A DNA stretch of 64,000 bases from Candidatus Caldarchaeum subterraneum (GCA_937934305.1 CALHAG010000002.1:13263-77262), one strand, 5' to 3'. Shown: positions 1 through 20,010, counted from the stretch's first letter. Numbers and translations are program-made. The notes: a model not told the origin generated them from the sequence alone.

Positions 1-621
1 AACCAGCTCTGCGCTCAGCTCATCATCTATTATGCATCTATACGCGTAGCCTGTTCCCGTGTAATAGATTAGGTAGAACGCAATAACTGTGACTATAAGT
101 AGAGTAGTTAACGCGATGTAGTAGTATCTCATGTAGTATGGTAGATTGTCTAAAAACAGTAGGCTAACTCCTCTTATCCTGAACCCTGTTTCTCCCCCTG
201 TCAAGTCAACGAGGCCTGTGACAAGGTTGCTGAAGACGAGTGTGATGGCGAGGGTGAAAATTCCGGTGAAGATTGCGACGAGTTTGCGTCTCACGGAGAG
301 GATGCTGACTGCCCAGCCGACGATCGCGACGACGACCGTTGATAATGCGACAGCCTCTATTGGCCCAGCTATACCGTCTCTCAGCAATATTCCCGTGACG
401 TATGCACCTATTCCTGCGAAGGCTCCTATGCTGAGGAAAAGCTGTCGAGTGAATCCGAACAGGAAGTTGAAGCTGTAGGCGAATATCGTGAAGAAAGTCA
501 TCTGTGCAAGTATGAAAACCACATAGGGCGTGTTGATGAAGGGAAGAGGTAGCGCTATGTAGATGAGGATTAAAGCAGCTAAAACATACAGCCTCGTTTT
601 TACGTATTTATCGGTCACCAT
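1..621 (-). CDS. branched-chain amino acid ABC transporter permease (LivM-like), 3' end cut by window edge
   Basis: Hand translation of the minus strand from ATG at 621-619 gives an open 207-codon frame to position 1 (MVTDKYVKTRLYVLAALILIYIALPLPF...IDDELSAELV) with a hydrophobic multi-TM profile. It is absent from the ORF track because there is no in-window stop. It overlaps the livH-like gene by a few nt. Confidence 0.75.
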   Translation of the reverse strand, partial: MVTDKYVKTRLYVLAALILIYIALPLPFINTPYVVFILAQMTFFTIFAYSFNFLFGFTRQLFLSIGAFAGIGAYVTGILLRDGIAGPIEAVALSTVVVAIVGWAVSILSVRRKLVAIFTGIFTLAITLVFSNLVTGLVDLTGGETGFRIRGVSLLFLDNLPYYMRYYYIALTTLLIVTVIAFYLIYYTGTGYAYRCIIDDELSAELV

Positions 622-1487
622 CTCTCACCAAGTATTCCGTAAGGCCTTGTGAGAAGCAGCACCATGATGAGGATAAGTAGAGCCACATATGCGAGATAGG
701 TGCCCACGACGACAACAAGAAACGTGTATACAACGCCTATCACGAGCCCAGCCGCCATCGTTCCCGACACACTTCTTATTCCACCGACCACAGTCACTAG
801 CAAACCGAGTATAGTGAATTCGAGACCGCTCTCGGGAGCGACCGTAGCTATAAGGCTTCTCACGATACCCGCCATGCCAACTAAAACGGCTCCAACCATG
901 AACACAAGCAGCCTATATTTTTTTACGCTTATACCCACCAGCAAGGCTCCTGTCTCGTTTTGTGTAAGTGAACGAATCGCCCTGCCGGTCCACGTTTTCT
1001 TCAGGAATAGATATATGCCGAGAAGTATGACGGCCGATGAAACACCCGCTACTACTTGGGCTGTTCTAAACGATAAGCCGAGAAGCTCTATGTTTGGGGT
1101 TGGCATATTCAACGTCAGATAAGCAAGTGGAAAAGTGGTGATTATTCCACCATGCAGGAAAATCGAGAAAGCTAGAGTTATGTAGAGACCTAGCAACACC
1201 CTTTCCTCGCCCTCAAGCTTGTAAATAGGACTCAAGACTACACGGTCAAGAACAACCGCAACAGCAAGTGTAGCCGCGATACCTGCGATGAGCGCAAGCG
1301 GCAGCGGCAAGCCAAGCGACCCGGAAAGAACGGCTGCGGTGACTGTTGTGACAACAAGAAGCTCTCCATGCGCCAGATTGAGCACGCCCGCCAAGCCGTA
1401 TATCAGCGTCAGACCGGCTGCGATAAGGGATAGGACTAGCCCGAACACGATGCCGTCAAGAAGGTACAGAATTATAGATGCATCCAT
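615..1487 (-). CDS. branched-chain amino acid ABC transporter permease (LivH-like)
   Basis: 290-aa polytopic membrane protein (MDASIILYLLDGIVFGLVLSLIAAGLTLIYG...), typical LivH N-terminus. It is translationally coupled to its neighbours. Confidence 0.9.
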   Translation of the reverse strand: MDASIILYLLDGIVFGLVLSLIAAGLTLIYGLAGVLNLAHGELLVVTTVTAAVLSGSLGLPLPLALIAGIAATLAVAVVLDRVVLSPIYKLEGEERVLLGLYITLAFSIFLHGGIITTFPLAYLTLNMPTPNIELLGLSFRTAQVVAGVSSAVILLGIYLFLKKTWTGRAIRSLTQNETGALLVGISVKKYRLLVFMVGAVLVGMAGIVRSLIATVAPESGLEFTILGLLVTVVGGIRSVSGTMAAGLVIGVVYTFLVVVVGTYLAYVALLILIMVLLLTRPYGILGERW

Positions 1488-2237
1488 CTACATCCCCATG
1501 TATCTTCTCAAAAAAGATTTGGAGTATACGGCTTCTTTGATGTCGCCTTCATACACGATGCGCCCGTTTGACAAAACATAGCCTCTGTCACTAAGCTGAG
1601 CGGATTGCACGGTCCGCTGCTCCACGAGCAGTATGGATAGCTCCTTCTTTGTTTCCATAAGCTTACGCATTGCTTGGAAAATGGTTTTGACAAGGAGTGG
1701 TGCCAGGCCTGTTGATGGTTCATCCAATAGAAGTAGTTTCGAATCGGTCATCAAGGCTCTGCCTATTGCAAGCATCTGCTGCTCGCCTCCGCTCATTGTG
1801 CCCGCCTTCTGAGAAGCCCGCTCCTTTAACTTCGGGAAGATGCTGTAAACTATCTCGAGGTTTTCGTCTAATTTTTGGCGGGCCCGTTTATTGAAGGCGC
1901 CGAGTATGAGGTTTTCGTGAACGGTCATCAGCGGGAAAAGCTCTTTCTCAGCCAAGGCAAGCGCCACACCTTCTTCGACAATTTTCTCCGGCGGCTTGCC
2001 GTCAATCCTTTTTCCCTCTAACAGAATTCTTCCTTTCTTGGGTTTTATGATTCCTGCGATTGTTTTTAGTAGGGTGGTTTTGCCTGCGCCGTTGGGGCCA
2101 AGCACAGCAACCACCTCTCCTTTCTCCACAGTCAGCGAAACATTCCAGAGAATCTGTATGTCACCGTACCCCGAGTCCAATCCCTCAAGCTGAAGAAGAC
2201 TCGGCAACTTCTCTCTCACCCAGATATGCCTCAACAA
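1488..2237 (-). CDS. ABC transporter ATP-binding protein (LivF-like)
   Basis: Walker A GPNGAGKTTLLKTIAG, signature LSGGEQQMLAIGRAL, Walker B LLLLDEPSTGLAP. The true start is probably downstream of the tracked M (53-nt overlap with livG). Confidence 0.9.
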   Translation of the reverse strand: MLRHIWVREKLPSLLQLEGLDSGYGDIQILWNVSLTVEKGEVVAVLGPNGAGKTTLLKTIAGIIKPKKGRILLEGKRIDGKPPEKIVEEGVALALAEKELFPLMTVHENLILGAFNKRARQKLDENLEIVYSIFPKLKERASQKAGTMSGGEQQMLAIGRALMTDSKLLLLDEPSTGLAPLLVKTIFQAMRKLMETKKELSILLVEQRTVQSAQLSDRGYVLSNGRIVYEGDIKEAVYSKSFLRRYMGM

Positions 2238-2943
2238 CTTCTTGATCCATGACGACCTCCTCGGGCCTTCCCTCAGCCAGCTTCGACCCCTGATTAAGCA
2301 CAGTCACCTTATCGGCGAGAGACGCCACCGCGCTTATCACATGCTCCACCCAGACGATGGTTAACCCATATTCTCTCCGCAAGTCTTTGAAAAGTTGTAC
2401 GGCTTCCTCGACCTCAGCCGTGTTAAGCCCGCTCATATACTCATCAACCATAAGCACCTTAGGCTTCGAGGCAAGGGCCCGAGCCAGTTCAACCTTCTTC
2501 CTCTCCTGGAGATTCAGCAAACCCGCTTTCATCTCCGACTTCTCAGCGAGACCAAGCTTGTCTAAAAGAGTTGAAACATTTTTCTCCAGCTCCGTTCTGT
2601 CAAGTCTCTCGGTAAATAGCCCGCCAGCCAAGACATTTTCCCACACAGTTAAATCCTTGAAAGGTCTTGGAATCTGCAAAGTCCTGCTTATGCCAAGTTT
2701 GAATATCTCGTGAGGAGGCTTTCCCGTGATATCTTTTCCGTCAAAGAATATTTTTCCCGACGATGGTTTGTACACGCCGTTAACAACGTTAAAGAGAGTG
2801 GTTTTTCCCGCACCATTAGGGCCGATGATGGCCCTTATTTCATTAGCCTCTATCTCGAGATTGATGTTTTTCAGAGCCGGTAATCCTCCAAAATACTTCG
2901 TAACTTCAACACATTTAATTAAGGCGGTCAACCCGTAATCCAC
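2185..2943 (-). CDS. ABC transporter ATP-binding protein (LivG-like)
   Basis: GPNGAGKTTLFNVVNG, LSGLNTAEVEEA, VLMVDEYMSGL motifs. Confidence 0.9.
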   Translation of the reverse strand: MDYGLTALIKCVEVTKYFGGLPALKNINLEIEANEIRAIIGPNGAGKTTLFNVVNGVYKPSSGKIFFDGKDITGKPPHEIFKLGISRTLQIPRPFKDLTVWENVLAGGLFTERLDRTELEKNVSTLLDKLGLAEKSEMKAGLLNLQERKKVELARALASKPKVLMVDEYMSGLNTAEVEEAVQLFKDLRREYGLTIVWVEHVISAVASLADKVTVLNQGSKLAEGRPEEVVMDQEVVEAYLGEREVAESSSA

Positions 2944-2969
2944 TCCAATATAGAAAAATAAAAGGATGG

Positions 2970-4187
2970 TTACTTTTCGGGTACGTACGGCTGGACAGGC
3001 GGCGAGACGTAGAGTGTTTCGATTACCCAGTTGGCGCCGGGGTTGATGTTTCCTGGGTTACCTTGCTTGATTACAGCGAGTCTCATCGCAGGTTTCTTTA
3101 TCTCACCCCACTCGGTGTAGGAGAGAGGCCAAGCAAATATTGGCGAGTTGTATTCGCTTGTCCGAATGTGGTTGGCTACGGTGACAGGGTCAACTGACTT
3201 GGTCTTCTCAACCGCGTCAGCTATCATCATGACTGTTACATAGCCCGTGACAGCGTTGTGGTCAAAGAATTTTCCATATTTTTGATAGAATTTTTCGGCT
3301 AGCTGCCTGTACTCGGGTGCCTCCGAGTTGACGCACGTGGTTGTCACGAGTTTGCCGAGGCCGATGTCGCCTACACCTCTCAGCATCAGCTCAGGAGGCT
3401 GCACCGATGCGATGTAGTACGCGGACTGGAAACCGAGCTCGATGGCCTGTTTAGTGATTGTTGGGAAGCCTGGCGGATGTCCGGTGAGTATCATCACCTC
3501 TGGTTGAAGAGGCTGGAGCTTGCGCAGAACCGTTGTAAAGTCTGTTTCACCCAGAGGCGTCTCCTCAATCTGGTACTGTACACCCTGTAGCTGTTTCAGC
3601 CTTTGGTCCAAGACGTCTCTGATAGCGAATCCCCATTCATAGCTGGCTATCACTACTCCAACACGTTTGTATCCTTTGTCGCGTACAAAGTTCGCCAAGA
3701 GCTCACCGTTGGTGGGTGCGGGTGGAAGACAGGTTCTGAAGGTGTATCGCGACTCCTTGGTCAATATTGTGTGGGAGCCTGCCGCCACGAGGAATAGCGG
3801 CACTTTAGCCTGCTCAGCTTCGGCGGAAAGAACCGCGCCAATTCCGCTGGAAATTGTTCCGACAACCGCTGTCACCCTGTCAACCTCAGCCATTCTCTTA
3901 AAGATGGCCACAGCCTCTTTGGCGTCGTTCTTCTCATCAGCCTCCACAAGGACAACACGGGCGCCGAGAACACCTCCTCGGGCGTTTATCTCTTCGACAG
4001 CAAACCTCATGCCATCAAGGGTATAGGCGCCGTAAACAGCGAAAGGCCCCGTCAAAGGAACCAATGCACCGATTTTAACCTCTGACACACCGAGACTCTG
4101 CTGAGATAGAAAGAGAAAGCCCGCAGAAGCCGCGACAGCAGCGACAACAATCACCGCAACAATAGCGACCAATACGGACCTTTTCAC
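2970..4187 (-). CDS. ABC transporter substrate-binding protein (LivK / type I periplasmic-binding fold) with N-terminal TM/signal anchor
   Basis: 405 aa. N-terminal hydrophobic segment MKRSVLVAIVAVIVVAAVAASAGF, then KIGALVPLTGPFAVYG, typical of Leu/Ile/Val-binding family proteins. First gene of the liv-type set. Confidence 0.85.
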   Translation of the reverse strand: MKRSVLVAIVAVIVVAAVAASAGFLFLSQQSLGVSEVKIGALVPLTGPFAVYGAYTLDGMRFAVEEINARGGVLGARVVLVEADEKNDAKEAVAIFKRMAEVDRVTAVVGTISSGIGAVLSAEAEQAKVPLFLVAAGSHTILTKESRYTFRTCLPPAPTNGELLANFVRDKGYKRVGVVIASYEWGFAIRDVLDQRLKQLQGVQYQIEETPLGETDFTTVLRKLQPLQPEVMILTGHPPGFPTITKQAIELGFQSAYYIASVQPPELMLRGVGDIGLGKLVTTTCVNSEAPEYRQLAEKFYQKYGKFFDHNAVTGYVTVMMIADAVEKTKSVDPVTVANHIRTSEYNSPIFAWPLSYTEWGEIKKPAMRLAVIKQGNPGNINPGANWVIETLYVSPPVQPYVPEK

Positions 4188-4219
4188 AGCGGCATCACCT
4201 AAAACCCCGACATTTAAGT

Positions 4220-5206
4220 CTATACATTATCTACAAGGGGCAGAAGCTCATCGGTGATTTTACGCAGCTGACTCTCCTCATAGGTCACAGGGTTGAGGAC
4301 AATCCAGTCAACTCCTTCGAGAGACCTTATCCGGTTCTTTATTTTTTCAGCCAACTCCTCGACGGTGCCGTATAGGTAGAAGTTTCTCCAATAATCTAGG
4401 TTCATACCCGAGTAGAGTGAGAAACGTTTGACTGCTTCTTCATCTCCTTCGCCGGGGCTTTTGATGTAGACAAAGTTTGAGTATACTTTCTGGATTTTGT
4501 ATGGGTCGCGACCGAGCTCTGTAGCGTATTTCTTGACCTTCTCCCAGTCCTGTCTAGCCATCTCCGGTGTAGAGCTTGAATGTGGTATCCAGCCATCGGC
4601 GAATTTTGCGACACGATACAGTACCCTGTCTATGCCTTTGGCCGCGGCTCCGTATAGTATTTCATGAGGCTGGCTGCCTCCCCCAATCCAAATAGGTGGA
4701 TGAGGTTTTTGGAGAGGCTTCGGCTCCAGAACCAAGTCCCTCACGTTGAAGAACCTGCCCTCGAAGGTTATTTTATCCTCTGTCCACAGCTTCTTCAGAA
4801 GAACAAGATATTCATCCATTATTGCGCCCCGTTTCTCCAGCGGCGTATTCAAAAGCCTGAATTCGTCAGGGTTCCACCCAACCCCCGCCCCGAGAACAAA
4901 ACGACCCCCAGAGTATACATCCAGAGAAGCCAGCTGTTTCGCTAATAGGTACGGGTTTCTGAACGGTAGCACAAGTATCATGGGGCCTATGACTGCTTTC
5001 TTGGTTGCGGCGCCTATGAAAGAGAGAGCTATCAAGGGGTCGTGCCAGCTTGTCGAGTAAGCAGGCCTCGATGTGAGGAGATGATCAATCACGAAGAAAC
5101 CTTCAACGCCTAGCTCCTCAGCCTTCGCTACATAATTTTTCAGAGTCTCAAAGGAAGAGAATTCGCCGGGCCTCGCGTATGTGGGTAGTCTTAGACCGAG
5201 CTTCAT
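4220..5206 (-). CDS. LLM-class (luciferase-like) flavin/F420-dependent oxidoreductase
   Basis: 328 aa, MKLGLRLPTYARPGEF...FFVIDHLL, characteristic LLM N-terminus. Start ATG overlaps the upstream stop (cacTGATGaag). Confidence 0.8.
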   Translation of the reverse strand: MKLGLRLPTYARPGEFSSFETLKNYVAKAEELGVEGFFVIDHLLTSRPAYSTSWHDPLIALSFIGAATKKAVIGPMILVLPFRNPYLLAKQLASLDVYSGGRFVLGAGVGWNPDEFRLLNTPLEKRGAIMDEYLVLLKKLWTEDKITFEGRFFNVRDLVLEPKPLQKPHPPIWIGGGSQPHEILYGAAAKGIDRVLYRVAKFADGWIPHSSSTPEMARQDWEKVKKYATELGRDPYKIQKVYSNFVYIKSPGEGDEEAVKRFSLYSGMNLDYWRNFYLYGTVEELAEKIKNRIRSLEGVDWIVLNPVTYEESQLRKITDELLPLVDNV

Positions 5207-6390
5207 CAGTGACCAGCCTCCGGTAACTTTGCTGAGCCTTCTGTCTTGATTGAGCGGGTTGGGGGCGGAGTCATTCTGCTGCGTCCCACCCGTGGAAGAC
5301 CGTCAATCATAACCATTGCTATGCCTGGAATATCGCCGACTGAAAAAGCTTCAACAGCATCCTTCGCCACTGAGCCGTATGGAGCGTCGATGACCACGAG
5401 GTCGGCAGGCCTACCTGTCTCAATAATTCCCTCTCTAAGACCGAAAACTCTCGCCGTGTTGCCTGACGCGGCACAAACAACTCTCTCAGCCTCTACATCT
5501 GTGTTAGACGCTATGAAGGATATTGTTCTGATTATTCCTAGGGGGATGACGCCTGTTCCAGAGGGAGCGTCGTTACCTATTATAAGTCTATGAAGCTCGT
5601 TTCTCTGCTTGAGAATCTTGACGGTCTCCAGCATTGAGCGGAAGTTTCCGCATTGAACTACCTCGATGGCGGAGTTGAGGTTTTCAATAATTTTTCTGAT
5701 GTCCTGTAGAGATGGCGAAGTTGGGCCGCCGTTTATGTGTGACACGACATCTGGCCTGACTTTGAGAACTACTTCTGCGTTGTTTATTGTGCTTCCAGGA
5801 ATAGACGCGCCACCTGTATGGATGACGACCTTCATACCGTGTTTCTGCGCTGTCCGCACCATGGCAGCTGCCTCATCAGGGTCCTGCACGCTTCCGAGAC
5901 CCACCTCACCGACAAGCCATACCCCCGCCCTAACAACTTCTTCAAAATCTGACTCAGTCATCCCCTTCTCGAGTAAAAGGGCACCAGCATGTATCTTGGC
6001 GCCCAGCGGATGAATGTTTTTGAATGATTTGTGTGCGATGATTGCGAGAGCCTTTGATGCTTCTTTGTCACCTCTCGGCCTTCCGGGTAGATGCACCTCG
6101 CCTGCTGAAATAAATGTCGTTACACCTCCGTGGACTGAGGATTCTATGAAGCCGAGTGTGTTCTGCCGTGGTGTGAAGTCTCCGAAAACTGGGTGGACGT
6201 GTGAATCAAAAAGGCCCGGCATCACTGTCATGTTGTTGACGTCGAAGACACCGTCCGCAGGCCGTGAGATGTTCCAACCCACTTCCTCAATCACTCCGTC
6301 CTTGATGTAAATGCTGTTACCCTCGGCCACTGGCTTGTTGATGTCTCCTGACAGTATTTTTCCAGCATTTTTAATTATGTATGAAGGCAT
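5206..6390 (-). CDS. metal-dependent cyclic amidohydrolase (enamidase / dihydropyrimidinase-like superfamily)
   Basis: 394 aa with PGLFDSHVHPVFGDF (HxH metal motif) near the N-terminus, and GGASIPG/HINGGPT-type motifs further in. Confidence 0.8.
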   Translation of the reverse strand: MPSYIIKNAGKILSGDINKPVAEGNSIYIKDGVIEEVGWNISRPADGVFDVNNMTVMPGLFDSHVHPVFGDFTPRQNTLGFIESSVHGGVTTFISAGEVHLPGRPRGDKEASKALAIIAHKSFKNIHPLGAKIHAGALLLEKGMTESDFEEVVRAGVWLVGEVGLGSVQDPDEAAAMVRTAQKHGMKVVIHTGGASIPGSTINNAEVVLKVRPDVVSHINGGPTSPSLQDIRKIIENLNSAIEVVQCGNFRSMLETVKILKQRNELHRLIIGNDAPSGTGVIPLGIIRTISFIASNTDVEAERVVCAASGNTARVFGLREGIIETGRPADLVVIDAPYGSVAKDAVEAFSVGDIPGIAMVMIDGLPRVGRSRMTPPPTRSIKTEGSAKLPEAGH

Positions 6391-6414
6391 GTACCTCTGT
6401 GATTTTTGGAGGGT

Positions 6415-8724
6415 TTAAAGTCTTTGTCTATGAATCGCTGTCCAGAGCTGTCCCGGCGATAGGTGGGAGCGGGTTAGCCTTGTTTTGGTTGCGTCTTCCA
6501 AGGCGTTAACTATGGCGGCTGCCACCGGTATGAGCGGGCCTTCTCCCATGCCTTTGGAGCCGAGCTCCGAGAACAAAGACGGCGTCTCTATGTGGTCTAT
6601 GATAATTTCAGGTGTCTCCATGGCGGTTGGAAGCAGATAGTCGCTGAAGTGAGAGGTCAAAAGCTGGCCGTTTTCATCATAGACAAGCTCCTCGTAGAGA
6701 GTTGCTCCAATTCCCTGCAATACCCCTCCCAGTATCTGGCCATCGACAATTTTCTTGTTCAATATTTTTCCACAGTCATGGACGGCGACATATCTCAGAA
6801 TTTTTACCTCCCCTGTCTCTCTGTCGACCCTCACGACAGCAACATGGGCAGAGTTTCCATATGTGGCTGACATGTTGATTTTACCGGGTTCACCTGTGTT
6901 GAATGTCGGAAACTCATAGAAATATTCTGCTTGAAGGCTTGTGTGTTTGCCGTTAATCGTTAGAGAGTTGCGGTAAGCTATTGCGGCGATTTTCTCCAGC
7001 GATATGGAGACCTCCGAACCTTTTACCGATATTTTTCCATCACGTATCTCAAGGTCATCTGTTGATGTCTCGAGGATTTCGGCCGCTATCTCGAGGATTC
7101 TCTGTTTTAGTGTTTCGCATGATTTTTTGACGGCGGCCACTGTCATGACGCTGAATCTGCTTGCCCAAGTGCCGCCGTATGGGCTTGGGTACACAAAGTC
7201 GGTGTCGCCGAATATTACACGCACCTGTTCAGGCTTAACACCTAGAAGCTCGGAAACAAGTTCTGTAAGCACTGTTGCGTGTCCCTGCCCCTGTGGAATA
7301 GAGGCGGCATAAACAGTTATGGTGCCCGACTCCTCAAGCCTAACCACCGCACCCTCTCCTGAACCTGATGACTCGAACTCTGGGAATAGCAGCTTGTTTC
7401 GAGCTAGATTGGTGACTGCAGGCTCTACAACGCATGCGACTCCAACACCAACGTCCCCCTCATCTAGAAATTTTTCAGCCTGTGAAAGCCGCCATGCCTT
7501 GAGTAATGTGGCTTTATAGTCACCGCCGTCGTAGAGGCTTCCGAAAACAGTGCGGTAGGGCTGCTTCTCTTTTTCCACCATGTTTTTGAGACGTATCTCA
7601 ACTGGTGTCAACCCGAGCTCGCGAGCCGCGATGTCCATCATACGTTCTAAGACGAAGTAGGCCTGTTGGCATCCATAGCCTCGCACCGGGCCAGTGGGAC
7701 ATTTGTTTGTTAAGACAACCTTGAACTCGACATCGACGTTTTGTATGTCGTAGCATCCTAAGTAGGTCATTAGGGAACGCACAGTTCCACCCGGGTCTGG
7801 AAGCCGAGCATAGGCACCCACATCTTCTATGAAGCTTGTCCGGTAACCCGTCACCCGTCCGTCTTTTCTCAAAGCCATCTCAGCAACGGTGACCCTGTTT
7901 GAATTATGAGCCATCGCTGTCAAGTGTTCCCGACGTGTTTCCACCCATTTGACGGGTTTTCCGAGCTTGAGTGCGGCATAGCAGGTTAGGAAAACAATGG
8001 GGTAAAGCATTATTTTTACCCCGAATCCTCCTCCTATGTCGTGTTCGATGAACCGTAGTTTCTCCGGCTGAATTCCAAGTGATTGTGCGATGGATTTTTT
8101 GAAGAGCTGAGGGGTCTGCTGGTTGTCGTAAACGGTTAGTGAGCCGCCCTTGTCCGGGACCGCTACAACTCCGCATGTCTCTATAGGAGCCGCTGCGTAT
8201 CTGTCGAAATAGAACTTTTCTTTCACGACAGTGTCGGCTTCGGCGAACATTTTCTCTACTTCTCCAAAAACGAGTCGGCGGCTCAGAGCCACGTTTGAGC
8301 CTAGGTTTTCATGCACGAGGTTGGAGGAGTTCACCGCCTCCTCAGGGTCGACAATTGGTGGTAGCGGCTCGTAATCGATGTACACCTCCTCAGAAGCGTC
8401 GAGAGCATCTCCAAGAGTCTCGGCAGCAACCATGGCAACGGGTTCGCCGAAAAACCTTGCTTTCCCAACAGCAATTCCATAATATGGCACATCCCTAATC
8501 AGAGTATACAGCGGCTTAGTCTCATTTGCCACCGTTTTACCGTCGATAACCGCGACAGCCTTCTTGAGCGCATCACTGCTGTTTATCGATTTTATTTTTG
8601 CATGTCCATATGGGCTTCGGACAAAAACGAGATGAAGCATCTTGGGGAAAATGAGGTCATCTATGAATTGGCCTTCTCCACGCAGAAGACGCGGGTCTTC
8701 CACCCTTTTTTGCAGCTTCAACAA
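6415..8724 (-). CDS. xanthine dehydrogenase family molybdopterin-binding large subunit (CoxL / aldehyde oxidoreductase-like)
   Basis: 769 aa, MLKLQKRVEDPRLLRGEGQFIDDL..., typical Mo-hydroxylase large-subunit N-terminus. No adjacent FeS or FAD subunit genes. Confidence 0.9.
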   Translation of the reverse strand: MLKLQKRVEDPRLLRGEGQFIDDLIFPKMLHLVFVRSPYGHAKIKSINSSDALKKAVAVIDGKTVANETKPLYTLIRDVPYYGIAVGKARFFGEPVAMVAAETLGDALDASEEVYIDYEPLPPIVDPEEAVNSSNLVHENLGSNVALSRRLVFGEVEKMFAEADTVVKEKFYFDRYAAAPIETCGVVAVPDKGGSLTVYDNQQTPQLFKKSIAQSLGIQPEKLRFIEHDIGGGFGVKIMLYPIVFLTCYAALKLGKPVKWVETRREHLTAMAHNSNRVTVAEMALRKDGRVTGYRTSFIEDVGAYARLPDPGGTVRSLMTYLGCYDIQNVDVEFKVVLTNKCPTGPVRGYGCQQAYFVLERMMDIAARELGLTPVEIRLKNMVEKEKQPYRTVFGSLYDGGDYKATLLKAWRLSQAEKFLDEGDVGVGVACVVEPAVTNLARNKLLFPEFESSGSGEGAVVRLEESGTITVYAASIPQGQGHATVLTELVSELLGVKPEQVRVIFGDTDFVYPSPYGGTWASRFSVMTVAAVKKSCETLKQRILEIAAEILETSTDDLEIRDGKISVKGSEVSISLEKIAAIAYRNSLTINGKHTSLQAEYFYEFPTFNTGEPGKINMSATYGNSAHVAVVRVDRETGEVKILRYVAVHDCGKILNKKIVDGQILGGVLQGIGATLYEELVYDENGQLLTSHFSDYLLPTAMETPEIIIDHIETPSLFSELGSKGMGEGPLIPVAAAIVNALEDATKTRLTRSHLSPGQLWTAIHRQRL

Positions 8725-8829
8725 GGGTTGGGTTTGATGGGGTGAATTTTAAACTGTTTCAAAGATTGGTTGGCGGTGTTCGTGTTTCTGGACTTATTAT
8801 CTCGGGGCTGGATGTATGGCTGAGGAAAA

Positions 8830-9618: not shown

Positions 9619-10476
9619 ATGCCCAGGCTGTTCTATGTTTTGCAGGGTGTTGGCGCGGGTTTTTTCTTCGGCACCGCATCTATCTTTGTCAGGTTTCTGA
9701 CAGGTGTTGACGCTTTCACGATTGTTGTTTTCCGTGTATTGGTGGCGGGGCTTCTTCTTTCGGTCTTGGCTGCTTTTTTCTTCCGGAGTGATGTTGTAAA
9801 GGCTTTTCGCAGCTTTCCCGGAGAGATACCGCTGCTCGGTCTTCTCCTGAGCTTTCACTTCATCTTTTTCGTGCTCGGTGTCCAAAACACCTCCGTCGTC
9901 AACGCAACCACTCTCGTCAACACTACGCCCGCGATGGCTCTTGCTATAGGCTGGGGCCTCGGCTGGACCAGGCCCTCAAACCTCAACGTTGTTGGACTGG
10001 TTCTCGCTGTAGCAGGCTCTGCTACCATGGCGTTGGGCGAATCGTCTGGAGCAGGTGGAGGGTTGCTTGGCAACGTCTACGCCGTGTTGGGGGCTTTTTT
10101 CTGGGCCCTCTATCTCGTTGTTGGGAAAAGGGTTAGGCAGGAGGTGAACATCTTCGCCGTCTTTGGCCCGCTTCTACTCTTCACATCTCTACCGGCCCTG
10201 GCGGCGGCTTACCTACTGGGCCAAGGCCTCTACCCGCCTAACTTGGAGCAGACGCTTTTCCTCCTCGCTCTCGCGCTTTTCCCCACTGTTCTCGGCCACG
10301 GACTACAGTTCTCCAGCTTGAGAGGACTTCACCCATATCAAGCGTCCTCGCTTGCTCTGTTGGAGCCGATTGTTGCGGCTCTTCTCGCCGCTGTTTTGCT
10401 TGCTGAGGTCGCGGGCCCGGTGACCTATCTTGGAGCAGCCGCGGTGATTTTGGGCATCTATCTCGTCATAAGGTAG
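9619..10476 (+). CDS. DMT-superfamily (EamA-like) transporter
   Basis: 285 aa, about 10 TM helices, two EamA-like halves. Confidence 0.75.
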   Translation: MPRLFYVLQGVGAGFFFGTASIFVRFLTGVDAFTIVVFRVLVAGLLLSVLAAFFFRSDVVKAFRSFPGEIPLLGLLLSFHFIFFVLGVQNTSVVNATTLVNTTPAMALAIGWGLGWTRPSNLNVVGLVLAVAGSATMALGESSGAGGGLLGNVYAVLGAFFWALYLVVGKRVRQEVNIFAVFGPLLLFTSLPALAAAYLLGQGLYPPNLEQTLFLLALALFPTVLGHGLQFSSLRGLHPYQASSLALLEPIVAALLAAVLLAEVAGPVTYLGAAAVILGIYLVIR

Positions 10477-11408
10477 TCGATGAGGAGTTTGGCTGTGGCG
10501 GCGTCTTGGACGGCGAGGCCCACGCTCTTGAAAACAGTTATCTCACGCTCATCTGTTCTCCCGGGCTTGAGTCCCGCGGCTATTTCCCCTATCTCTGCGT
10601 AGATGTCCTCGAACCTCATCAGCCCAAGCTCAATAGGCTTGAGGATGTCGCCAGCCTCCTCCCGCACCGCTTCACGCGAGTCAACCACGAGCTTCGAGTT
10701 TGCGACGAGCGCTGGCTCGATTTCAACCATCTCGGGTGTGTAGCCTCCTATGGCGGATATGTGTGTGCCTTCTTTCACCCAGCTCTTGAGCACTACCGGC
10801 TGCTTAGAGGTTGTTACTGTTATCACTACGTCGCTCCATCTCACAAGCTCCTCCGCAGTCGGCGACGGCTTAACATCATGACCCAGGCGACCCATCTCCG
10901 CCACAAACTCGTTTAAGCGCTTCGAGTCGATGTCATAGGCCTTGAAGATGGTGTATGGATAGTTTGCCGCGACAACTCGAAGCTGCCACCTCGCCTGATA
11001 ACCTGTGCCGATTATGCCGACTCTGGTGAAGTCACGGCGTGCGAGATGTTTGATGGAGACGGTTGTTGCGGCCGCTGTCCGTAGACCTGTGAGGGCCCTG
11101 GCCTCTGCGACGAGCCGAGGCAGCCCCGTCGAGGCGTCCAAGGCTATGACTGTGGCGTTAATTGTTGGGAGACTTTTTTCAAGGTTCCGGGGATAGACTG
11201 TCACCAGCTTGAGGCTGAAAATCCCCATATCGGGAACAAGGCACGGCATCATCAATATGTCTCCTCCATGCTCCCTGTTTTCGACGCGTGAGCGGACAGG
11301 CATCACAACGCGGCCTGTGCTGTAAAGGATGTAGGCACGCTCCACAGCCTCAACAACCTTCACAGGGTCAACCAAAGAAGCCACTTCATCATCAGTCAAA
11401 AACTTCAT
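10458..11408 (-). CDS. ornithine cyclodeaminase / mu-crystallin family protein (archaeal alanine dehydrogenase / ketimine reductase-like)
   Basis: MKFLTDDEVASLVDPVKVVEAVERAYILYSTGRVVMPVRSRV..., Rossmann GIIGTGYQARWQL. Start taken at the internal MKFLTDD rather than the tracked upstream M at 11465. Confidence 0.85.
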   Translation of the reverse strand: MKFLTDDEVASLVDPVKVVEAVERAYILYSTGRVVMPVRSRVENREHGGDILMMPCLVPDMGIFSLKLVTVYPRNLEKSLPTINATVIALDASTGLPRLVAEARALTGLRTAAATTVSIKHLARRDFTRVGIIGTGYQARWQLRVVAANYPYTIFKAYDIDSKRLNEFVAEMGRLGHDVKPSPTAEELVRWSDVVITVTTSKQPVVLKSWVKEGTHISAIGGYTPEMVEIEPALVANSKLVVDSREAVREEAGDILKPIELGLMRFEDIYAEIGEIAAGLKPGRTDEREITVFKSVGLAVQDAATAKLLIDYLMTR

Positions 11409-11478
11409 ACATGGAACGGGCAGCAGCGCACTTATATCCTTGTATATGCACCATCTATAAATCATCTCAATTGAACTT

Positions 11479-13752
11479 TTGAACGTGTCCGCCGGACGGG
11501 CTGCAACGTTTCTAATTTTCGCGCTACTGCTGACTATTTCCTCAGTTCACGGCGGTGTTGTAGAGGAGTTGGTGCAGCGTCCGCCGGCTGAAAAGAGCGA
11601 TTCCTCATCCATGGTTGGGGAAATGTTCGCCGAGCTGGGTTTCGACGGCTACATTCAGCGGAGATATTATCCGCTTCTTGATGTAAGCTTGGTTGACATA
11701 GGTGTTGACAGGCTTTTGAATGTCTCGGGCTTGAATGCGGCGGCTGTTGATGGCCGCGGTGTCTTGATAGCTGTTGTGGACACGGGGGTGGATTACCGTC
11801 ATCCAGCCTTCAGAACAGCTAATGGCACGAGGATTGTTGCTATCTGGGACCAGACGGTCGAGGGGAAGCCGCCGCAAGGCTTCGGATACGGCTACGAATG
11901 CGATAGACAAGAGATTTTATCAGGCACTTGTCCTCAGCGCGACACGGTGGGCCATGGAACGGTGGTGGCCTCGATTGCGGCTGGAGGAGTTTACGGCGAG
12001 TGGGTGCTGAGAGGTGTTGCCTCTGGCGCGGAACTGGTTGTGGTAAAGACCGGAGGCCCTGCGTGTGGTGGGACGCGGTGGTTCTTCGGCGAAACGGGGC
12101 TGCTTGACGGCATAGCCTATGCGGTTGATAAGGCAAAGCAACTGGGTAGAAGGCTTGTCGTCGTCCTGAGTCTCGGAACAGACATCGGTGCACATGACGG
12201 CAGCACACCCCTTGAAAAAGCGCTAGACAAATGGGCCGAGGAGGATGGAGTCGTCTTCGTCGTCGCAGCAGGAAACTCGGCCAACGACTCCCGACACGTC
12301 GAAGCAACACTCACGCAAGGCATCCAGCTCACACTACGGATGACTATTCCTGAGCAGACAACAGAGGCCGCCCTTTCCCTCGTAACCCACTCCGGAAACG
12401 TTATGGAGCTAGCTCTTACATCACCGTCGCTGAACAGGGTGGAGCTGCCGCTAAACGGCTCCAAAACCTTCAGAGAAATCACGCTCGAAACAAGCACACA
12501 GAGAACAGGGCCTCTTCAGGAAATCGCCATCAGCATCAAAGCCAATCCTCTCGAGACAGGTGTTTGGAGGCTTTCTATAACACCGCGCCAAGTATTCGAC
12601 GGGAAAATGCATGCATGGCTCGAGTCAGACACATGTAGCCAAGAGTCGGAAGCCTTCCTCCCCTCAGAGGACTATGACATCACATCATCCTTCACGGTAA
12701 CTATTCCGGGCACAGCCAAGAAGGTCTTGACAGTCGGGGCCTATAACACTAGAAGAACTTGGACAGCGGGAGGACAGACATGGAGCGTGGGAGGCACAGT
12801 CGGAGACATCGAGTTCTACAGCGGACGCGGCCCCACCACAGACGGCAGAACCAAACCCGACATCACCGCACCCGGAGGCGTAGTGTTCGCAGCCCGTTCA
12901 AGAGATGCATCACGTCAAGCATTCAGCCCCAGCGAAGACACAGCGGTGAGCAGAGGCACCAGCATGGCCGCACCACATGCAGCTGGCGTGGCTGCGCTCA
13001 TCCTCCAACTCGCCCCAACCCTATCACCAGAAGAAGTTTTCGAAATTATCAGAAACACTGCGAGACGGGATAGCTACACAGGTGACACGGTGTCGAACAC
13101 ATGGGGGCATGGCAAGCTAAACGCAGACATAGCCTATGTACTTCTAGCCGAGGTGGATGGCCCGGTTGCAGAAGCTCGGCCGACGATTCTACTCGACAAC
13201 AAGGCAGTCGCCAACATCTCTACACCGAGCGTAACCAGCCTAGTGCTCTTGAGAAACAGACAAGCCAACATCTCTCTCCAGCTCCCCTCAACACCATACA
13301 CCCGATACACCACCACCCCCAGCCACTTCATCGTAAACGGTACACATGAGAAAGCACGTTTCATTCTCGATGCATATCATAGGGTTGATGTTCTATATCC
13401 CAACGGAACGATGATTGACACAGCCTGGGCACGGGAAGGAGACACACTGGACATCAACTCACTGCTAGGAGCCAAAGGGTTGAAACTTAGTTTGAGAGGC
13501 TATGTCGACGAGAAAGGTGTAGAACATAGCGGCACAACACTTCGCGTCACTGCTCCAACACGAATAACACTCATTCTAGAGGAGCCGAACATTCTCACGC
13601 CTGTGCTGGGAGCGCTCACCGCCTTAGTGCTGCTGGTTCTGCTGTCAACCGCTGTGATGCGGCTCAGACGCTACAGAAACTCTGGAACAAGGCCCTCGTC
13701 CACAACACACCTGCCTTCATCGTCCACGGAGCTTATCACGAAAAGCGGATGA
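11479..13752 (+). CDS. S8 subtilisin-like serine protease, secreted with C-terminal TM anchor
   Basis: Signal peptide. Asp box AVVDTGVDYRHPAF, His box DTVGHGTVVASIAAG, Ser box GTSMAAPHAAGVAALI. C-terminal LGALTALVLLVLLSTAV anchor. Confidence 0.9.
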   Translation: MNVSAGRAATFLIFALLLTISSVHGGVVEELVQRPPAEKSDSSSMVGEMFAELGFDGYIQRRYYPLLDVSLVDIGVDRLLNVSGLNAAAVDGRGVLIAVVDTGVDYRHPAFRTANGTRIVAIWDQTVEGKPPQGFGYGYECDRQEILSGTCPQRDTVGHGTVVASIAAGGVYGEWVLRGVASGAELVVVKTGGPACGGTRWFFGETGLLDGIAYAVDKAKQLGRRLVVVLSLGTDIGAHDGSTPLEKALDKWAEEDGVVFVVAAGNSANDSRHVEATLTQGIQLTLRMTIPEQTTEAALSLVTHSGNVMELALTSPSLNRVELPLNGSKTFREITLETSTQRTGPLQEIAISIKANPLETGVWRLSITPRQVFDGKMHAWLESDTCSQESEAFLPSEDYDITSSFTVTIPGTAKKVLTVGAYNTRRTWTAGGQTWSVGGTVGDIEFYSGRGPTTDGRTKPDITAPGGVVFAARSRDASRQAFSPSEDTAVSRGTSMAAPHAAGVAALILQLAPTLSPEEVFEIIRNTARRDSYTGDTVSNTWGHGKLNADIAYVLLAEVDGPVAEARPTILLDNKAVANISTPSVTSLVLLRNRQANISLQLPSTPYTRYTTTPSHFIVNGTHEKARFILDAYHRVDVLYPNGTMIDTAWAREGDTLDINSLLGAKGLKLSLRGYVDEKGVEHSGTTLRVTAPTRITLILEEPNILTPVLGALTALVLLVLLSTAVMRLRRYRNSGTRPSSTTHLPSSSTELITKSG

Positions 13753-15518: not shown

Positions 15519-16661
15519 TTGGTACTCTGCTATGTGAAAGAGGTTCTAGACCTGCCATCCCTTTTTCCGCTGAGCTACTGGGAGAAGATGAGTGACTCAG
15601 GCCTGTTTCCCGAGGAGTTTTGGCGAGAGTGTGGAAGACGTCGATTGCCCGGTTTCCTTATTCCAGCAACCTATGGTGGATTGGGTAAAACTGTCGGCGA
15701 CCTCGTCGAGGCCGTGATTTACCTCACTATGTATGGCTGCGGAACAGCTGTTTACCCACTTCTCAGCAACAACATGTCCTCGCTCGTGATAAACAAGTCA
15801 GGAACCGAGAAACAGCGACAAAAATTTCTCCCACGCCTCGCCATAGGCGAATACATCATGGGTCTCTCGATAACGGAGAGGGAGTCGGGCTCGGATGTGC
15901 TCTCGATAAAGACAACCGCGGTCAAACAGGGTGGAAAATATGTGATAAATGGTGAGAAGATGTATGTCAACAACTTTGACAGAGCTACTCACATGCTTCT
16001 CGCCGCTAGAACCACACCTGTTGAGCGTGCTGCGAAGAAGAGCCTGGGGCTTACGTTGTTTGTTCTCGACATGAAGAGCGCTGGGCTTAGCTTCTCGGAG
16101 CTCCCGAAGATGGGCACCAACTATTTCAGGACAGGTGTGATGAGGCTTGAAAATGTGGAGGTTGATGAAGAGGATGTTGTGGGGGAGCTGGACAATGGAT
16201 GGAAAGCTCTTGCACACGCCCTTAACCCGGACCGCATAGTTTACGCAGCTGTCGCCGTTGGCTCAGCGCTCTTCGCCATCAAAACAGCCACCTCATACGC
16301 CCAAGAGCGCAAAGTCTTCGGAAAACCGATAGGAGCTTATCAGGGCATACAGTTCCCACTCGCATCTCTCTACACAGAAACAGAGGCTGCAAGGCTTCTT
16401 ACACTAGACGCGGCTGCGAAATTTGACAGAGGTGAGGATGCGAGCGTGGCCGCGTGCTTGGCAAAGTACTTCGCCTCTGAGGTGGTGTTTAAGGCTGTTG
16501 GGCAGGCTGTTCAGGTTCTCGGCGGATACGGCTACCTTAGGGAGTCGGGGCTGGAGCGTGTGCTTAGAGACATCTACTTGCTCAGGTCAGGGCCGATTAC
16601 GCAGGAGCTGGCCCTCGCATTCATAGCAGAGAAAGGCCTCGGCTTGCCGCGGTCCTACTAA
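15519..16661 (+). CDS. acyl-CoA dehydrogenase family protein
   Basis: 380 aa, LTMYGCGTAVYPLLSNN, ERESGSDVLSIKTTA, C-terminal YQGIQFPLA...GGYGY motifs. Confidence 0.85.
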   Translation: MVLCYVKEVLDLPSLFPLSYWEKMSDSGLFPEEFWRECGRRRLPGFLIPATYGGLGKTVGDLVEAVIYLTMYGCGTAVYPLLSNNMSSLVINKSGTEKQRQKFLPRLAIGEYIMGLSITERESGSDVLSIKTTAVKQGGKYVINGEKMYVNNFDRATHMLLAARTTPVERAAKKSLGLTLFVLDMKSAGLSFSELPKMGTNYFRTGVMRLENVEVDEEDVVGELDNGWKALAHALNPDRIVYAAVAVGSALFAIKTATSYAQERKVFGKPIGAYQGIQFPLASLYTETEAARLLTLDAAAKFDRGEDASVAACLAKYFASEVVFKAVGQAVQVLGGYGYLRESGLERVLRDIYLLRSGPITQELALAFIAEKGLGLPRSY

Positions 16662-17635
16662 AGCTCCACAACCCGGCCCACATCCATCTTCTCAGCCATG
16701 CGCAAGACACGCGAAGTGAAGTAGAGGTCGAGAGCCGCAAACCCAACGGATTTGAGCAAAGATACATGAACGTTACGGGGCCTTGTCAAATTTTGTTTAA
16801 CAACTTCATGCAGCTCAAGAACCTTCGCCGGGTCCACGATGCCCTTCTCCACAGCCGCCATGATGTCACCCGCTTCCCTTAGCACGGATTTCTTGAGGTC
16901 GGCTGCTATCAACTCTGCGCGTCGAAAAGTCTCAAGGTCAAGTTCTCTACGCGTAGGAAGAGCACCTATGCTCGTCACATGCACGTTTTCCGCAAGCCAC
17001 TCACCCGATAAAACCGGTTCAGCCGAGTTCGTAGCCGTTAACACTACGTCAGCGTTTTCCACGGCTTCACGTGGGCTGTCAACAGCTTTTGCATCTATTC
17101 CAAGCGTTTTCGAAGCTTTTTCTGCAAGCTTCTCTCTGTTGGCCTTTGTTGGGCTGTAGATTTTGACACGCTCGATGTTGCGTACGGTGTGGAGGGCGGT
17201 TAACTGTGTCCAAGCTGTTCTCCCGCTTCCAATCAAAGCCGCGGACCTGCTGTCGACTGGCGCGAGATATTTTGCACCCACCCCACCAATAGCCCCTGTT
17301 CTCAGCGAAGTGAGTGCCACAGCGTCCAAAACACCTTTAAGCACGCCTGTTTCTATGTCGAAGAACAGCACAACACCATGAGCCGCCTCCATGCCGTGTA
17401 GAACAGGGTTTTTCCTGTACTCGTTTATCAGCTTCACCGCGTATCCTCCGACGTGGAGGCTCGCGGCCGGCATGTTGAGGTAGACAGCTTCACGCTCCTC
17501 AATCGCTGTAACCATCCGCGGCGGAGCAACATACTTCTCATCACCATAATCCCTGAAAAAATCTTCAACGATTTCCACAGAGGTTTTCATGTCAAGCCAG
17601 TTCTCGAGCTCGCTTCGAGAAATTACTCTGACCAA
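16658..17635 (-). CDS. ornithine cyclodeaminase / mu-crystallin family protein (second paralog)
   Basis: 325 aa, ...LHVGGYAVKLINEYRKNP, ALIGSGRTAWTQL Rossmann. About 35-40% similar to the 10458..11408 copy by eye. Confidence 0.85.
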   Translation of the reverse strand: MVRVISRSELENWLDMKTSVEIVEDFFRDYGDEKYVAPPRMVTAIEEREAVYLNMPAASLHVGGYAVKLINEYRKNPVLHGMEAAHGVVLFFDIETGVLKGVLDAVALTSLRTGAIGGVGAKYLAPVDSRSAALIGSGRTAWTQLTALHTVRNIERVKIYSPTKANREKLAEKASKTLGIDAKAVDSPREAVENADVVLTATNSAEPVLSGEWLAENVHVTSIGALPTRRELDLETFRRAELIAADLKKSVLREAGDIMAAVEKGIVDPAKVLELHEVVKQNLTRPRNVHVSLLKSVGFAALDLYFTSRVLRMAEKMDVGRVVEL

Positions 17636-17637
17636 TT

Positions 17638-18909: not shown

Positions 18910-19043
18910 AGTTTCAGCGGGCTTGTTGAAGAAGCGGGCTGAATTCACATCAAGGCTGAGGAGCCGCCGTTCTAAAAAATGTTTACAACACAACAAAACA
19001 CAAACCAAAGCTATAATACTACGCAGCAAACCAGATATCCGTT

Positions 19044-20009
19044 ATGAAGCTGGTTACTTTCCAACATCCCCATCGTCGCGAACCACGTCTCGGCATTGTG
19101 TACGGCGAATACGTGATTGACGGAAACATGGCCTACACCGTGTTGTTAAGTGAGGAGGGCGAAGAGGACCCGGATGTTTTGGCAAATGCTCTTCTGCCAT
19201 CGAACATGATTTCTTTCCTGCGTAGAGGCCGGAGAGCTTTTGAGGCCGCTGAGAGAGTTTTGTTCAAGGCAAGGTCCTTCATCAACATGTCCTATGGAGA
19301 AGGCCTTGTGTATGAGCTTAGCAAAGTACACCTATATGCACCCATACCGCGGCCGGGCAAAATTATACACACCGCAGGAAACTTCCGCGAACACGCGAAA
19401 GAAGCTGAGAAAGCAAAGTGGGAGTTTCCGATTCCTCAGTGGATATCTTTCCTGAAGAGTCCCACAGCCGTCATAGGGCCATACGACAACATAGTGTATC
19501 CCAAGTACACCAAGGAGCTCGACTACGAGCTCGAGATGGCGATTGTGATTGGGAAGCGTGGCAAATATATCACGAAGGAGAGGGCGTTCGACTATGTAGC
19601 CGGATTCATGGTGTTTAACGACATAACCGCGCGTGATATTCAGCGGCAGGAGATGAAGAATGGGTTGCTGAACTTCGGAAAAAACCTTGACACATTTGCT
19701 CCACTAGGCCCCTATCTCGTGACAAAGGACGAGGTAAGCAACCCCCATAACCTGAAGATGGAGCTGCGGGTTAACGGCGAGGTGCGGCAGTCGGGGAACA
19801 CCAACAGGCTCTCGGTCACGCTGCAGGAGATTATCGAGCATTATTCATGGGTAATGCTTGAACCAGGCGACATCATCACCACGGGAACAATATCCGGAGT
19901 GGCCGCATTCAGAGAAAACCCGGAGAAATATTATCTCAAGCCAGGTGACTTGGTCGAGTCTGAGATTGAGAGCCTCGGCGTGATGCGTAATCCTGTCGTG
20001 GCTGAGTAA
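19044..20009 (+). CDS. fumarylacetoacetate hydrolase (FAH) family protein
   Basis: 321 aa, KIIHTAGNFREH, LDYELEMAIVIGKRG, MVFNDITARDIQ motifs. Confidence 0.85.
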   Translation: MKLVTFQHPHRREPRLGIVYGEYVIDGNMAYTVLLSEEGEEDPDVLANALLPSNMISFLRRGRRAFEAAERVLFKARSFINMSYGEGLVYELSKVHLYAPIPRPGKIIHTAGNFREHAKEAEKAKWEFPIPQWISFLKSPTAVIGPYDNIVYPKYTKELDYELEMAIVIGKRGKYITKERAFDYVAGFMVFNDITARDIQRQEMKNGLLNFGKNLDTFAPLGPYLVTKDEVSNPHNLKMELRVNGEVRQSGNTNRLSVTLQEIIEHYSWVMLEPGDIITTGTISGVAAFRENPEKYYLKPGDLVESEIESLGVMRNPVVAE

Positions 20010-20010
20010 A

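Follow-up and report, generated by a model that had tools for sequence, protein, structure and literature searches.

A candidate variant of the reductive nicotinate catabolic gene cluster, with a luciferase-like oxidoreductase and a lone molybdenum-hydroxylase large subunit, in Candidatus Caldarchaeum subterraneum

The first 8724 positions of a 64,000-nucleotide stretch of Candidatus Caldarchaeum subterraneum DNA (GCA_937934305.1, CALHAG010000002.1:13263-77262; the window hereafter) carry a cluster of minus-strand genes whose possible role in the breakdown of nicotinate is considered here. In order of transcription, the genes encode the large subunit of a molybdenum hydroxylase of the CoxL/Cut type (6415..8724; 768-769 amino acids; Pfam domains Ald_Xan_dh_C, MoCoBD_1 and MoCoBD_2), an amidohydrolase that is homologous to the enamidase of PDB entry 2vun (5206..6390; 394 amino acids), a luciferase-like (LLM) oxidoreductase of the F420-dependent class TIGR03619 (4220..5206; 328 amino acids), a Liv-type substrate-binding protein that carries a membrane anchor or signal sequence at its N-terminus (2970..4187; Peripla_BP_6, PF13458, E 3e-55), two ABC ATPases and two permeases. 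The LivG-like ATPase (ABC_tran and BCA_ABC_TP_C) occupies 2185..2943, with a called start at 2931 that gives 248 amino acids, and the LivF-like ATPase (ABC_tran) occupies 1488..2219, with a called start at 2219 that gives 243 amino acids in an open reading frame reaching 2237; both gene calls are those of the public contig L001. The LivH-like permease (615..1487; 290 amino acids; BPD_transp_2, E 3e-30) is followed by a LivM-like permease (1..618; BPD_transp_2). Profile searches with Pfam and NCBIfam bear out the gene families named in an initial annotation of the window, and the eight-gene minus-strand operon described there stands in that all eight genes are co-directional; however, the last permease is incomplete, with about 206 of its 321 codons inside the window edge, the gene ending 347 nt past the window start (15773-16738 in L001).

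The same annotation gave spacers of 0-30 nt, but with starts as called in identical public contigs the junctions, in order of transcription, are 24, -1, 32, 38, -35, 0 and -4 nt, a range of -35 to +38 nt. The LivF-like gene overlaps the preceding gene by 35 nt. The TGATG overlap noted between the amidohydrolase and LLM genes, in which stop and start share one base, can be read directly in the sequence, and a GAGGT motif lies 4 nt ahead of the ATG of the enamidase homologue. A 105-nt intergenic region upstream of the large-subunit gene is common to a divergent SIMPL/DUF541 gene. Within it, a TATA-box-like element, TTTAAAAT, can be read on the minus strand at 8746..8753, upstream of the large-subunit gene; because its distance of 21 nt from the first TTG of that gene and the archaeal TATA consensus fit, it is likely to be the promoter from which the operon is transcribed without a leader. 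The coding strand has a T-rich tract, CCTTTTATTTTTCTATATT, at 2944-2969, in the gap that separates the binding-protein gene from the first ATPase gene; it could act in partial termination or as an internal promoter, setting the binding protein at a higher level. The importer is a complete set of the HAAT (Liv) type, with binding protein, two permeases and two ATPases, one of them with BCA_ABC_TP_C.

The gene order is not chance, since the identical cluster is present on at least four public Caldarchaeum contigs, and its CoxL-enamidase-LLM core is retained in more distant Aigarchaeota (L085, where the CoxL protein is 61% identical, and L097-L100). Contigs of three NCBI metagenome-assembled genomes and Logan assemblies encode an identical amidohydrolase, which shares 97% identity with a protein of Candidatus Caldarchaeum subterraneum; this places the window in a Caldarchaeum species (Aigarchaeota/Caldarchaeales). 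The conserved linkage across lineages ties the large subunit to its neighbours, as the initial annotation had supposed, and speaks against a generic aldehyde oxidoreductase unrelated to them.

Contig L001 also shows what lies beyond the window start. At 16735-18785 (344-2394 nt past the window start), on the opposite strand and convergent to the LivM-like permease, are a gene for a 202-amino-acid DUF1185/AA_synth protein (344-952 nt) and, upstream of it with a 1-nt overlap, a gene for a 480-amino-acid aldehyde dehydrogenase. The latter resembles methylmalonate-semialdehyde dehydrogenase (MMSDH), its score of 441 bits on the CoA-acylating MMSDH model TIGR01722 falling just under the cut-off of 448.5, and the same type recurs in several other enamidase loci at 37-45% identity. 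The DUF1185 protein matches the structure 2qtp (E 1e-63), which has a chorismate-mutase-like fold, and the authors of the DUF1185 structure noted a link to branched-chain-type ABC transporters (PMC2954203).

When the amidohydrolase is compared with all PDB entries, the sole strong match is the enamidase of Eubacterium barkeri (2vun; EC 3.5.2.18; phmmer E 3e-124), and the alignment is full length, covering residues 3-382 of 394 against 3-384 of 386; the next match is a dihydroorotase at E 2.5e-09. We take residues H64, H66, K132, H191, H218 and D274 to be the binuclear-metal ligand set of the amidohydrolases (HxH, Lys, His, His, Asp); none of them varies among 13 homologues from archaea and bacteria, and all agree with 2vun in the alignment. 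Enamidase opens the ring of 1,4,5,6-tetrahydro-6-oxonicotinate (THON) in the reductive nicotinate route of E. barkeri and of aerobic Azorhizobium (PMC3511419). The homology points to this THON route of nicotinate breakdown, and the amidohydrolase is proposed to be the ring-opening hydrolase acting on THON.

How such genes are arranged elsewhere was seen by clustering all open reading frames that neighbour enamidase homologues at 40-58% identity in 80 listed bacterial loci; the Caldarchaeum genomes themselves are not among the listed matches of the enamidase contig scan. The commonest partner is DUF1185/AA_synth, found at 58 of the 80 loci by clustering and at 60 by tblastn and often a tandem pair in the proteobacterial loci, and these neighbourhood data tie it to enamidase. 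A protein of about 510 amino acids with an N-terminal 2x[4Fe-4S] domain occurs at 37-41 loci, an ApbE-like protein of about 290 amino acids at 39-40, a Liv-type binding protein at 29 and a molybdenum-hydroxylase large subunit at 24, with coxS and coxM adjoining in most. The binding protein of the window shares a homology cluster with the binding proteins of these loci. The published nicotinate cluster of Azorhizobium and Bradyrhizobium fits this recurrent set of partners (PMC3511419), and because of that match the 2x[4Fe-4S] protein can be read as Hnr. Enamidase family members at about 49-58% identity are found in the Hnr-type clusters, while homologues at 40-47% occur with DUF1185 but without hydroxylase or reductase. 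The Caldarchaeum locus has the molybdenum hydroxylase, enamidase, Liv-type ABC transporter and DUF1185 set of the THON-route cluster; since it contains no Hnr-type reductase, it is classed as a variant of that cluster and not as a member.

In E. barkeri and in proteobacteria, the reduction that forms THON is catalysed by Hnr, an Fe-S flavoprotein. Neither the three Hnr-like nor the two ApbE-like queries used found a tblastn match in the window, L001, L085, L014 or L017. What these loci have instead is an LLM gene. In the first set of loci, LLM homologues (36-70% identity) are confined to L085, L017 and L014, all of them without Hnr. The LLM protein is 70% identical in the Aigarchaeote locus L085, which has no Hnr-like or ApbE-like gene, 51% identical in the Methylomirabilia locus L017, where the order is enamidase-DUF1185-LLM, and 36% identical in the actinomycete locus L014. 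The window protein scores 202.7 bits on TIGR03619, whose cut-off is 166.9, and the homologues of L017 and L014 score 219 and 176 bits. The TIGR03619 class has no assigned substrate.

The same association is seen when approached from the LLM side. A scan of metagenome contigs with an LLM alignment found 68 that carry LLM at 44% identity or more, about seven of them low in GC and Aigarchaeota-like and about 60 of them high-GC (0.67-0.75) soil contigs, which are closely related, so the counts that follow overstate the number of independent observations. Enamidase is present in all 38 contigs that have at least 2.5 kb of upstream flank and DUF1185 in 37 of them, whilst CoxL is present in 38 of the 39 with at least 2.5 kb of downstream flank; 14 contigs have 6 kb or more of flank to either side, and all of these are devoid of Hnr, ApbE-like, CoxS and CoxM genes. 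The order in the soil contigs (L104-L162) is binding protein-LivHM-LivG-LivF-enamidase-DUF1185-LLM-CoxL, nine genes in all (e.g. L107 2676-12278, the content of which was confirmed by Pfam), and among named loci the Methylomirabilia one, L017, is nearest to them. Over some 160 otherwise equivalent loci, LLM and Hnr plus ApbE-like protein do not co-occur. Such mutual exclusion is the pattern of non-orthologous displacement at the same step, and we infer that LLM displaces Hnr.

The LLM protein would on this basis be a 6-hydroxynicotinate reductase, and probably an F420-dependent one. The step replaced is the reduction of the C4=C5 bond of 6-hydroxynicotinate, in which conjugate addition of a hydride comes first and protonation second. 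Reduction of enones, enoates and enamines is on record for F420H2-dependent enzymes, as is hydride transfer to the ring of picrate by a member of the LLM family (PMC8498797). The cofactor is also reported from the appropriate organisms, since F420 biosynthesis genes have been described in TACK archaea, Rokubacteria and Actinobacteria (PMC8498797) and the F420 pathway in the Aigarchaeote Calditenuis (PMC4681859), which are the groups of the named LLM-type loci (Aigarchaeota, Methylomirabilia and an actinomycete). A search of full-text literature that paired 6-hydroxynicotin with F420 returned nothing beyond a general review of contaminant biodegradation.

The large subunit has the look of an ordinary member of its family. 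In alignment with Qor and CO dehydrogenase it keeps the Gln of NQQTPQ, the GGGFG motif, R348-G349 and the catalytic Glu of GMGEG (E728), and it retains 73 of the 81 columns conserved in large subunits that have adjacent S and M genes. Assignment as a CO dehydrogenase (form I CoxL) was rejected, as the YRCSFR loop (in full VAYRCSFR, with the Cu-binding Cys) is replaced by TGPVRGYGCQQ and the score on TIGR02416 is 440 bits against a cut-off of 991. A clue to its substrate comes from L086/L087 10001-15383, where a 55% orthologue lies beside a NicX-family (Peptidase_M29-like) gene and a cyclase/formamidase-family gene, together with an amino-acid permease, an SDR gene and a divergent complete coxL-coxM-coxS operon. 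A Pfam scan of the L086 NicX-family gene recovers only the Peptidase_M29 relationship, and no NicC-like gene is seen in L086. The aerobic maleamate route of nicotinate breakdown uses NicX as its 2,5-dihydroxypyridine dioxygenase, and the neighbours at L086/L087 suggest a nicotinate route through 2,5-dihydroxypyridine. The THON and maleamate routes share only their first step, nicotinate 6-hydroxylation; since this step is common to both, the two contexts point to it as the reaction of the CoxL clade of the window, in a way that is suggestive rather than conclusive.

Taken together, these genes are probably an archaeal cluster for the reductive catabolism of nicotinate through THON, joined to a dedicated Liv-type ABC importer. 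The N-heterocycle catabolism coupled to uptake that was first proposed for the locus is supported, and is narrowed to the nicotinate THON route by the enamidase match and by the comparison with the bacterial clusters. In the proposed pathway, the importer would take up nicotinate or a very close pyridine carboxylate, and the large subunit, together with 2Fe-2S and FAD subunits whose genes would lie at another site in the genome, would hydroxylate C6 to give 6-hydroxynicotinate. The LLM protein, with reduced F420, would then deliver a hydride to C4 of the pyridone to form THON, the ring of which would be opened by the enamidase homologue to give 2-formylglutarate and ammonia. The DUF1185 protein and the MMSDH-like enzyme would finish the conversion, most simply to glutaryl-CoA and CO2. 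This last proposal follows from chemistry, since 2-formylglutarate is a 2-substituted malonate semialdehyde and as such a plausible substrate for an MMSDH-like enzyme, and it agrees with the onward metabolism of nicotinate via glutarate in Azorhizobium (PMC3511419). It is a guess that DUF1185 helps to hydrolyse the enamine or imine left by ring opening.

All of the alternatives considered are less well supported than the nicotinate THON pathway. The one that survives best, though we think it unlikely, keeps the pathway family and changes the substrate: a different N-heterocycle that gives a cyclic enamide of the 6-oxo-tetrahydropyridine type, or 6-hydroxynicotinate imported directly. It gains from the importer, for the PDB relatives of the binding protein are generic binding proteins of the Leu/Ile/Val and aromatic-acid types, none of them diagnostic of a substrate. 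It also gains from the large subunit, which falls below the cut-off of every NCBIfam model and so belongs to no curated equivalog family, and whose relatives in the PDB include quinoline and 6-hydroxypseudooxynicotine enzymes. The enamidase homologues that occur with DUF1185 but without hydroxylase or reductase would suit it too. However, enamidase is the only characterised member of the amidohydrolase family that the window protein matches over its full length, the closer members of that family sit in Hnr-type clusters like that reported for nicotinate-growing bacteria, and the orthologue of the large subunit beside NicX-family genes again points to nicotinate.

It is distinctly improbable that the large subunit is instead a late aldehyde oxidoreductase acting on 2-formylglutarate or glutarate semialdehyde, with the imported compound already hydroxylated. 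The best NCBIfam match of the large subunit is indeed the glyceraldehyde dehydrogenase alpha model (560 bits), the Sulfolobus-type 4zoh is among its best PDB matches, and the high-GC soil clusters have CoxL with no MMSDH-like aldehyde dehydrogenase nearby. But 560 bits is well under the cut-off of 790, and the N-heterocycle hydroxylases 1t3q (quinoline 2-oxidoreductase) and 7dqx, which with 8uem (CoxL) make up the other best PDB matches, score equal to the aldehyde enzyme. A dedicated aldehyde dehydrogenase is already present at the Caldarchaeum locus, and the Hnr-type clusters have a molybdenum hydroxylase with its own coxS and coxM at or near enamidase. In both E. barkeri and Azorhizobium, moreover, the first step of the pathway is nicotinate hydroxylation (PMC3511419).

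The assignment of LLM as the ring reductase has its own competitor, to which we give about as little credence. LLM could act after ring opening, for instance in the conversion of 2-formylglutarate to 2-(hydroxymethyl)glutarate, or be a flavin monooxygenase, with the 6-hydroxynicotinate reductase encoded elsewhere. In E. barkeri, 2-formylglutarate is reduced to 2-(hydroxymethyl)glutarate by Hgd, and some F420-dependent LLM proteins are alcohol or hydroxy-acid dehydrogenases (matches to 9fp4 and TIGR04465); a cluster with no nearby reductase at all, L080, can also be cited for it. Against this stand the absence of LLM from the proteobacterial Hnr-type clusters, which need none, the absence of any other conserved redox enzyme from the LLM-type clusters, and the mutual exclusion of LLM and Hnr plus ApbE-like protein, which fits displacement at a single step.

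The nicotinate THON pathway needs electron-transfer subunits for its hydroxylase, and these are missing from the locus. The initial annotation had given coxS and coxM as absent from at least 9 kb, and this holds for the whole 64 kb: a 2Fe-2S motif scan finds none in a plausible open reading frame, and tblastn with archaeal CoxS and CoxM queries gives nothing better than E = 1.8. Small- and medium-subunit genes are found neither directly beyond position 8724 nor anywhere else in the window, and coxS and coxM are likewise not found at L085 or L097-L100. In this lineage, coxL genes generally stand alone: five further Aigarchaeal or related coxL loci have no adjacent S and M genes, the only complete coxL-coxM-coxS set being that of L086. 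LLM is not a stand-in for the missing subunits, since some LLM-type clusters also hold a full CoxL/M/S set (L103, L014, L164 and L171-L175). A neighbour-joining tree of CoxL (33 sequences, 714 columns, 100 bootstraps) has three enamidase-linked clades: the XDH/PucD-like proteins with S and M, the lone CoxL proteins of the soil contigs and an Aigarchaeal clade, which contains the window protein and is nested with other Caldarchaeum paralogues. Orthology of the soil and archaeal lone CoxL proteins was rejected, since they fall in different, well-supported clades that are not sisters. The published genomes hold more coxL than coxS or coxM, with five coxL and one coxM/coxS pair in Calditenuis (PMC4681859) and, over other published Aigarchaeota bins, a total of 13 coxL, with two or more LMS sets in each; published Caldarchaeales metagenome-assembled genomes have multiple copies of coxL, coxM and coxS. 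Because of this excess, the most economical explanation would be that S and M subunits encoded elsewhere in the genome are shared in trans.

Other lone CoxL paralogues occur in Caldarchaeum. In L089-L092 and L093-L096, proteins 39-40% identical to that of the window are followed by a Mer-like F420-type LLM gene, with a 4-nt overlap at the junction in the former and a 37-nt gap in the latter; each pair is flanked by a second LLM gene and one or two Liv-type ABC importers, and coxS and coxM are absent. These loci look like a reused module of lone CoxL, LLM and importer. Two more paralogues without adjacent coxS or coxM are found on a 1.75-Mb contig (L177) and in an Aigarchaeote (L178), one near UbiD, nitrilase, CoA-transferase and LLM genes and the other near FtsX-type ABC genes.

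That CoxL and LLM are a self-contained pair, in which the large subunit would work without CoxS and CoxM and pass its two electrons from molybdenum directly, or via free F420, to the deazaflavin or flavin of LLM, for a net redox-neutral hydration of nicotinate to THON and with the module copied for other substrates in L089-L096, is very unlikely: lone CoxL regularly accompanies LLM in two unrelated CoxL clades, one of the other Caldarchaeum pairs even overlaps, and the chemistry of hydroxylation and reduction does balance in electrons, but to our knowledge no enzyme of the xanthine oxidase family works without 2Fe-2S centres, the lone CoxL proteins resemble ordinary large subunits in their conserved columns, LLM occurs with full CoxL/M/S sets, and the Aigarchaeota are reported to have fewer M and S genes than L genes, but not none.

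Several observations weigh against the nicotinate THON pathway as proposed for the window. At about 55% identity, the substrate of an enamidase homologue could be another cyclic enamide. At L080, enamidase and CoxLMS are present with neither LLM nor Hnr within 10 kb, from which it follows that the reductase need not sit in the cluster. The large subunit has an aldehyde enzyme as its best NCBIfam match and shares no more than 28-31% identity with the XDH-like hydroxylases of the Hnr-type clusters; and since the two lone CoxL clades are not sisters, a role cannot be transferred between them by orthology. A search of a large protein database with the L086 CoxM query found Nitrososphaerales-type proteins as nearest relatives and no Caldarchaeum match, which does not help the case for sharing in trans. 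No F420 biosynthesis genes were identified in the 64-kb window, and the case for the cofactor in this host rests on the literature on its relatives. Finally, the lineages behind the LLM-side counts number perhaps four or five.

The remainder of the window contains other genes of possible catabolic function. An acyl-CoA dehydrogenase (15519-16661) was tried as a glutaryl-CoA dehydrogenase and left out of the cluster, its matches being weak and generic (190 bits against a cut-off of 470). There are two ornithine cyclodeaminase/mu-crystallin paralogues, at 10458-11465 and 16658-17635, the second of which is grouped at 15519-22265 with the acyl-CoA dehydrogenase gene and with genes for a PaaK-like CoA ligase, an FAA-hydrolase-family protein, an HMGL-like protein and an E1 dehydrogenase component. 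This group could be a further catabolic island, no link between it and the nicotinate-type cluster being apparent. A 757-amino-acid subtilisin-like S8 protease (11479-13752) has a signal-like segment at the N-terminus; its C-terminal part holds a hydrophobic anchor and, after this, a tail rich in Ser and Thr. Scans for tRNA genes and for Rfam families at the gathering threshold found nothing in the 64 kb, and there is no Pfam match to a 495-amino-acid open reading frame at 36700-38187 or a 286-amino-acid one at 22262-23122.

Although the type of pathway is known, the variant with LLM in place of Hnr is apparently undescribed in the searchable literature. It is marked by this replacement, by a CoxL-type subunit without partner genes, by an archaeal host and by wide occurrence in soil metagenomes. 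If correct, the assignment would be the first of a nicotinate-type route to an archaeon, and, of the many Aigarchaeota coxL genes described as 'CO dehydrogenase-like', one or more would be re-read as serving the scavenging of organic nitrogen and carbon and not CO oxidation. It puts forward a soluble LLM protein, one that probably depends on F420, as a candidate non-orthologous substitute for Hnr, the Fe-S flavoprotein that reduces 6-hydroxynicotinate, and gives the TIGR03619 class a testable substrate in a cluster type that is abundant in high-GC soil metagenome contigs. It also provides a context for DUF1185, a structurally solved family, in its link to enamidase, and a defined system for studying how partnerless molybdenum-hydroxylase large subunits get their electron-transfer partners.

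The closest known systems are the nicotinate clusters of bacteria. That of the fermenter E. barkeri (Ndh, Hnr and Ena) was reportedly described by Alhapel et al. in 2006 (cited in PMC3511419). It is alike in its molybdenum hydroxylase, reduction to THON and ring opening by enamidase; set against it, the Caldarchaeum locus has LLM and neither an Hnr-like Fe-S flavoprotein nor an ApbE-like gene, its hydroxylase is of the CoxL/Cut and not the XDH type and has no S and M genes, its host is archaeal, and an ABC importer is joined to the operon. The cluster of Azorhizobium caulinodans and Bradyrhizobium resembles it more in organisation, bringing together hydroxylase, enamidase and a Liv-type putative nicotinate ABC transporter with conserved proteins that are probably DUF1185 and probably the ApbE-like protein (PMC3511419), but it holds an Hnr homologue and at least coxS beside the hydroxylase, where the Caldarchaeum locus has LLM and a lone large subunit. 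As an enzyme, the large subunit shares family and domain order with the Form II CoxL/Cut-type hydroxylases of Aigarchaeota and Sulfolobales, and, like the other Aigarchaeota homologues, it has no CO dehydrogenase active-site loop and comes from a group in which L genes exceed M and S genes (PMC4681859, PMC6053391); it differs from the Aigarchaeota coxL products treated earlier as possible CO dehydrogenases in its conserved context of enamidase, LLM and importer. The LLM protein belongs to the same TIM-barrel family as the F420H2-dependent LLM (LLHT) reductases picrate hydride transferase, Mer and Adf. Of these, picrate hydride transferase is an earlier case of hydride delivery to an electron-poor ring (PMC8498797), whilst 6-hydroxynicotinate as an LLM substrate is a new proposal.

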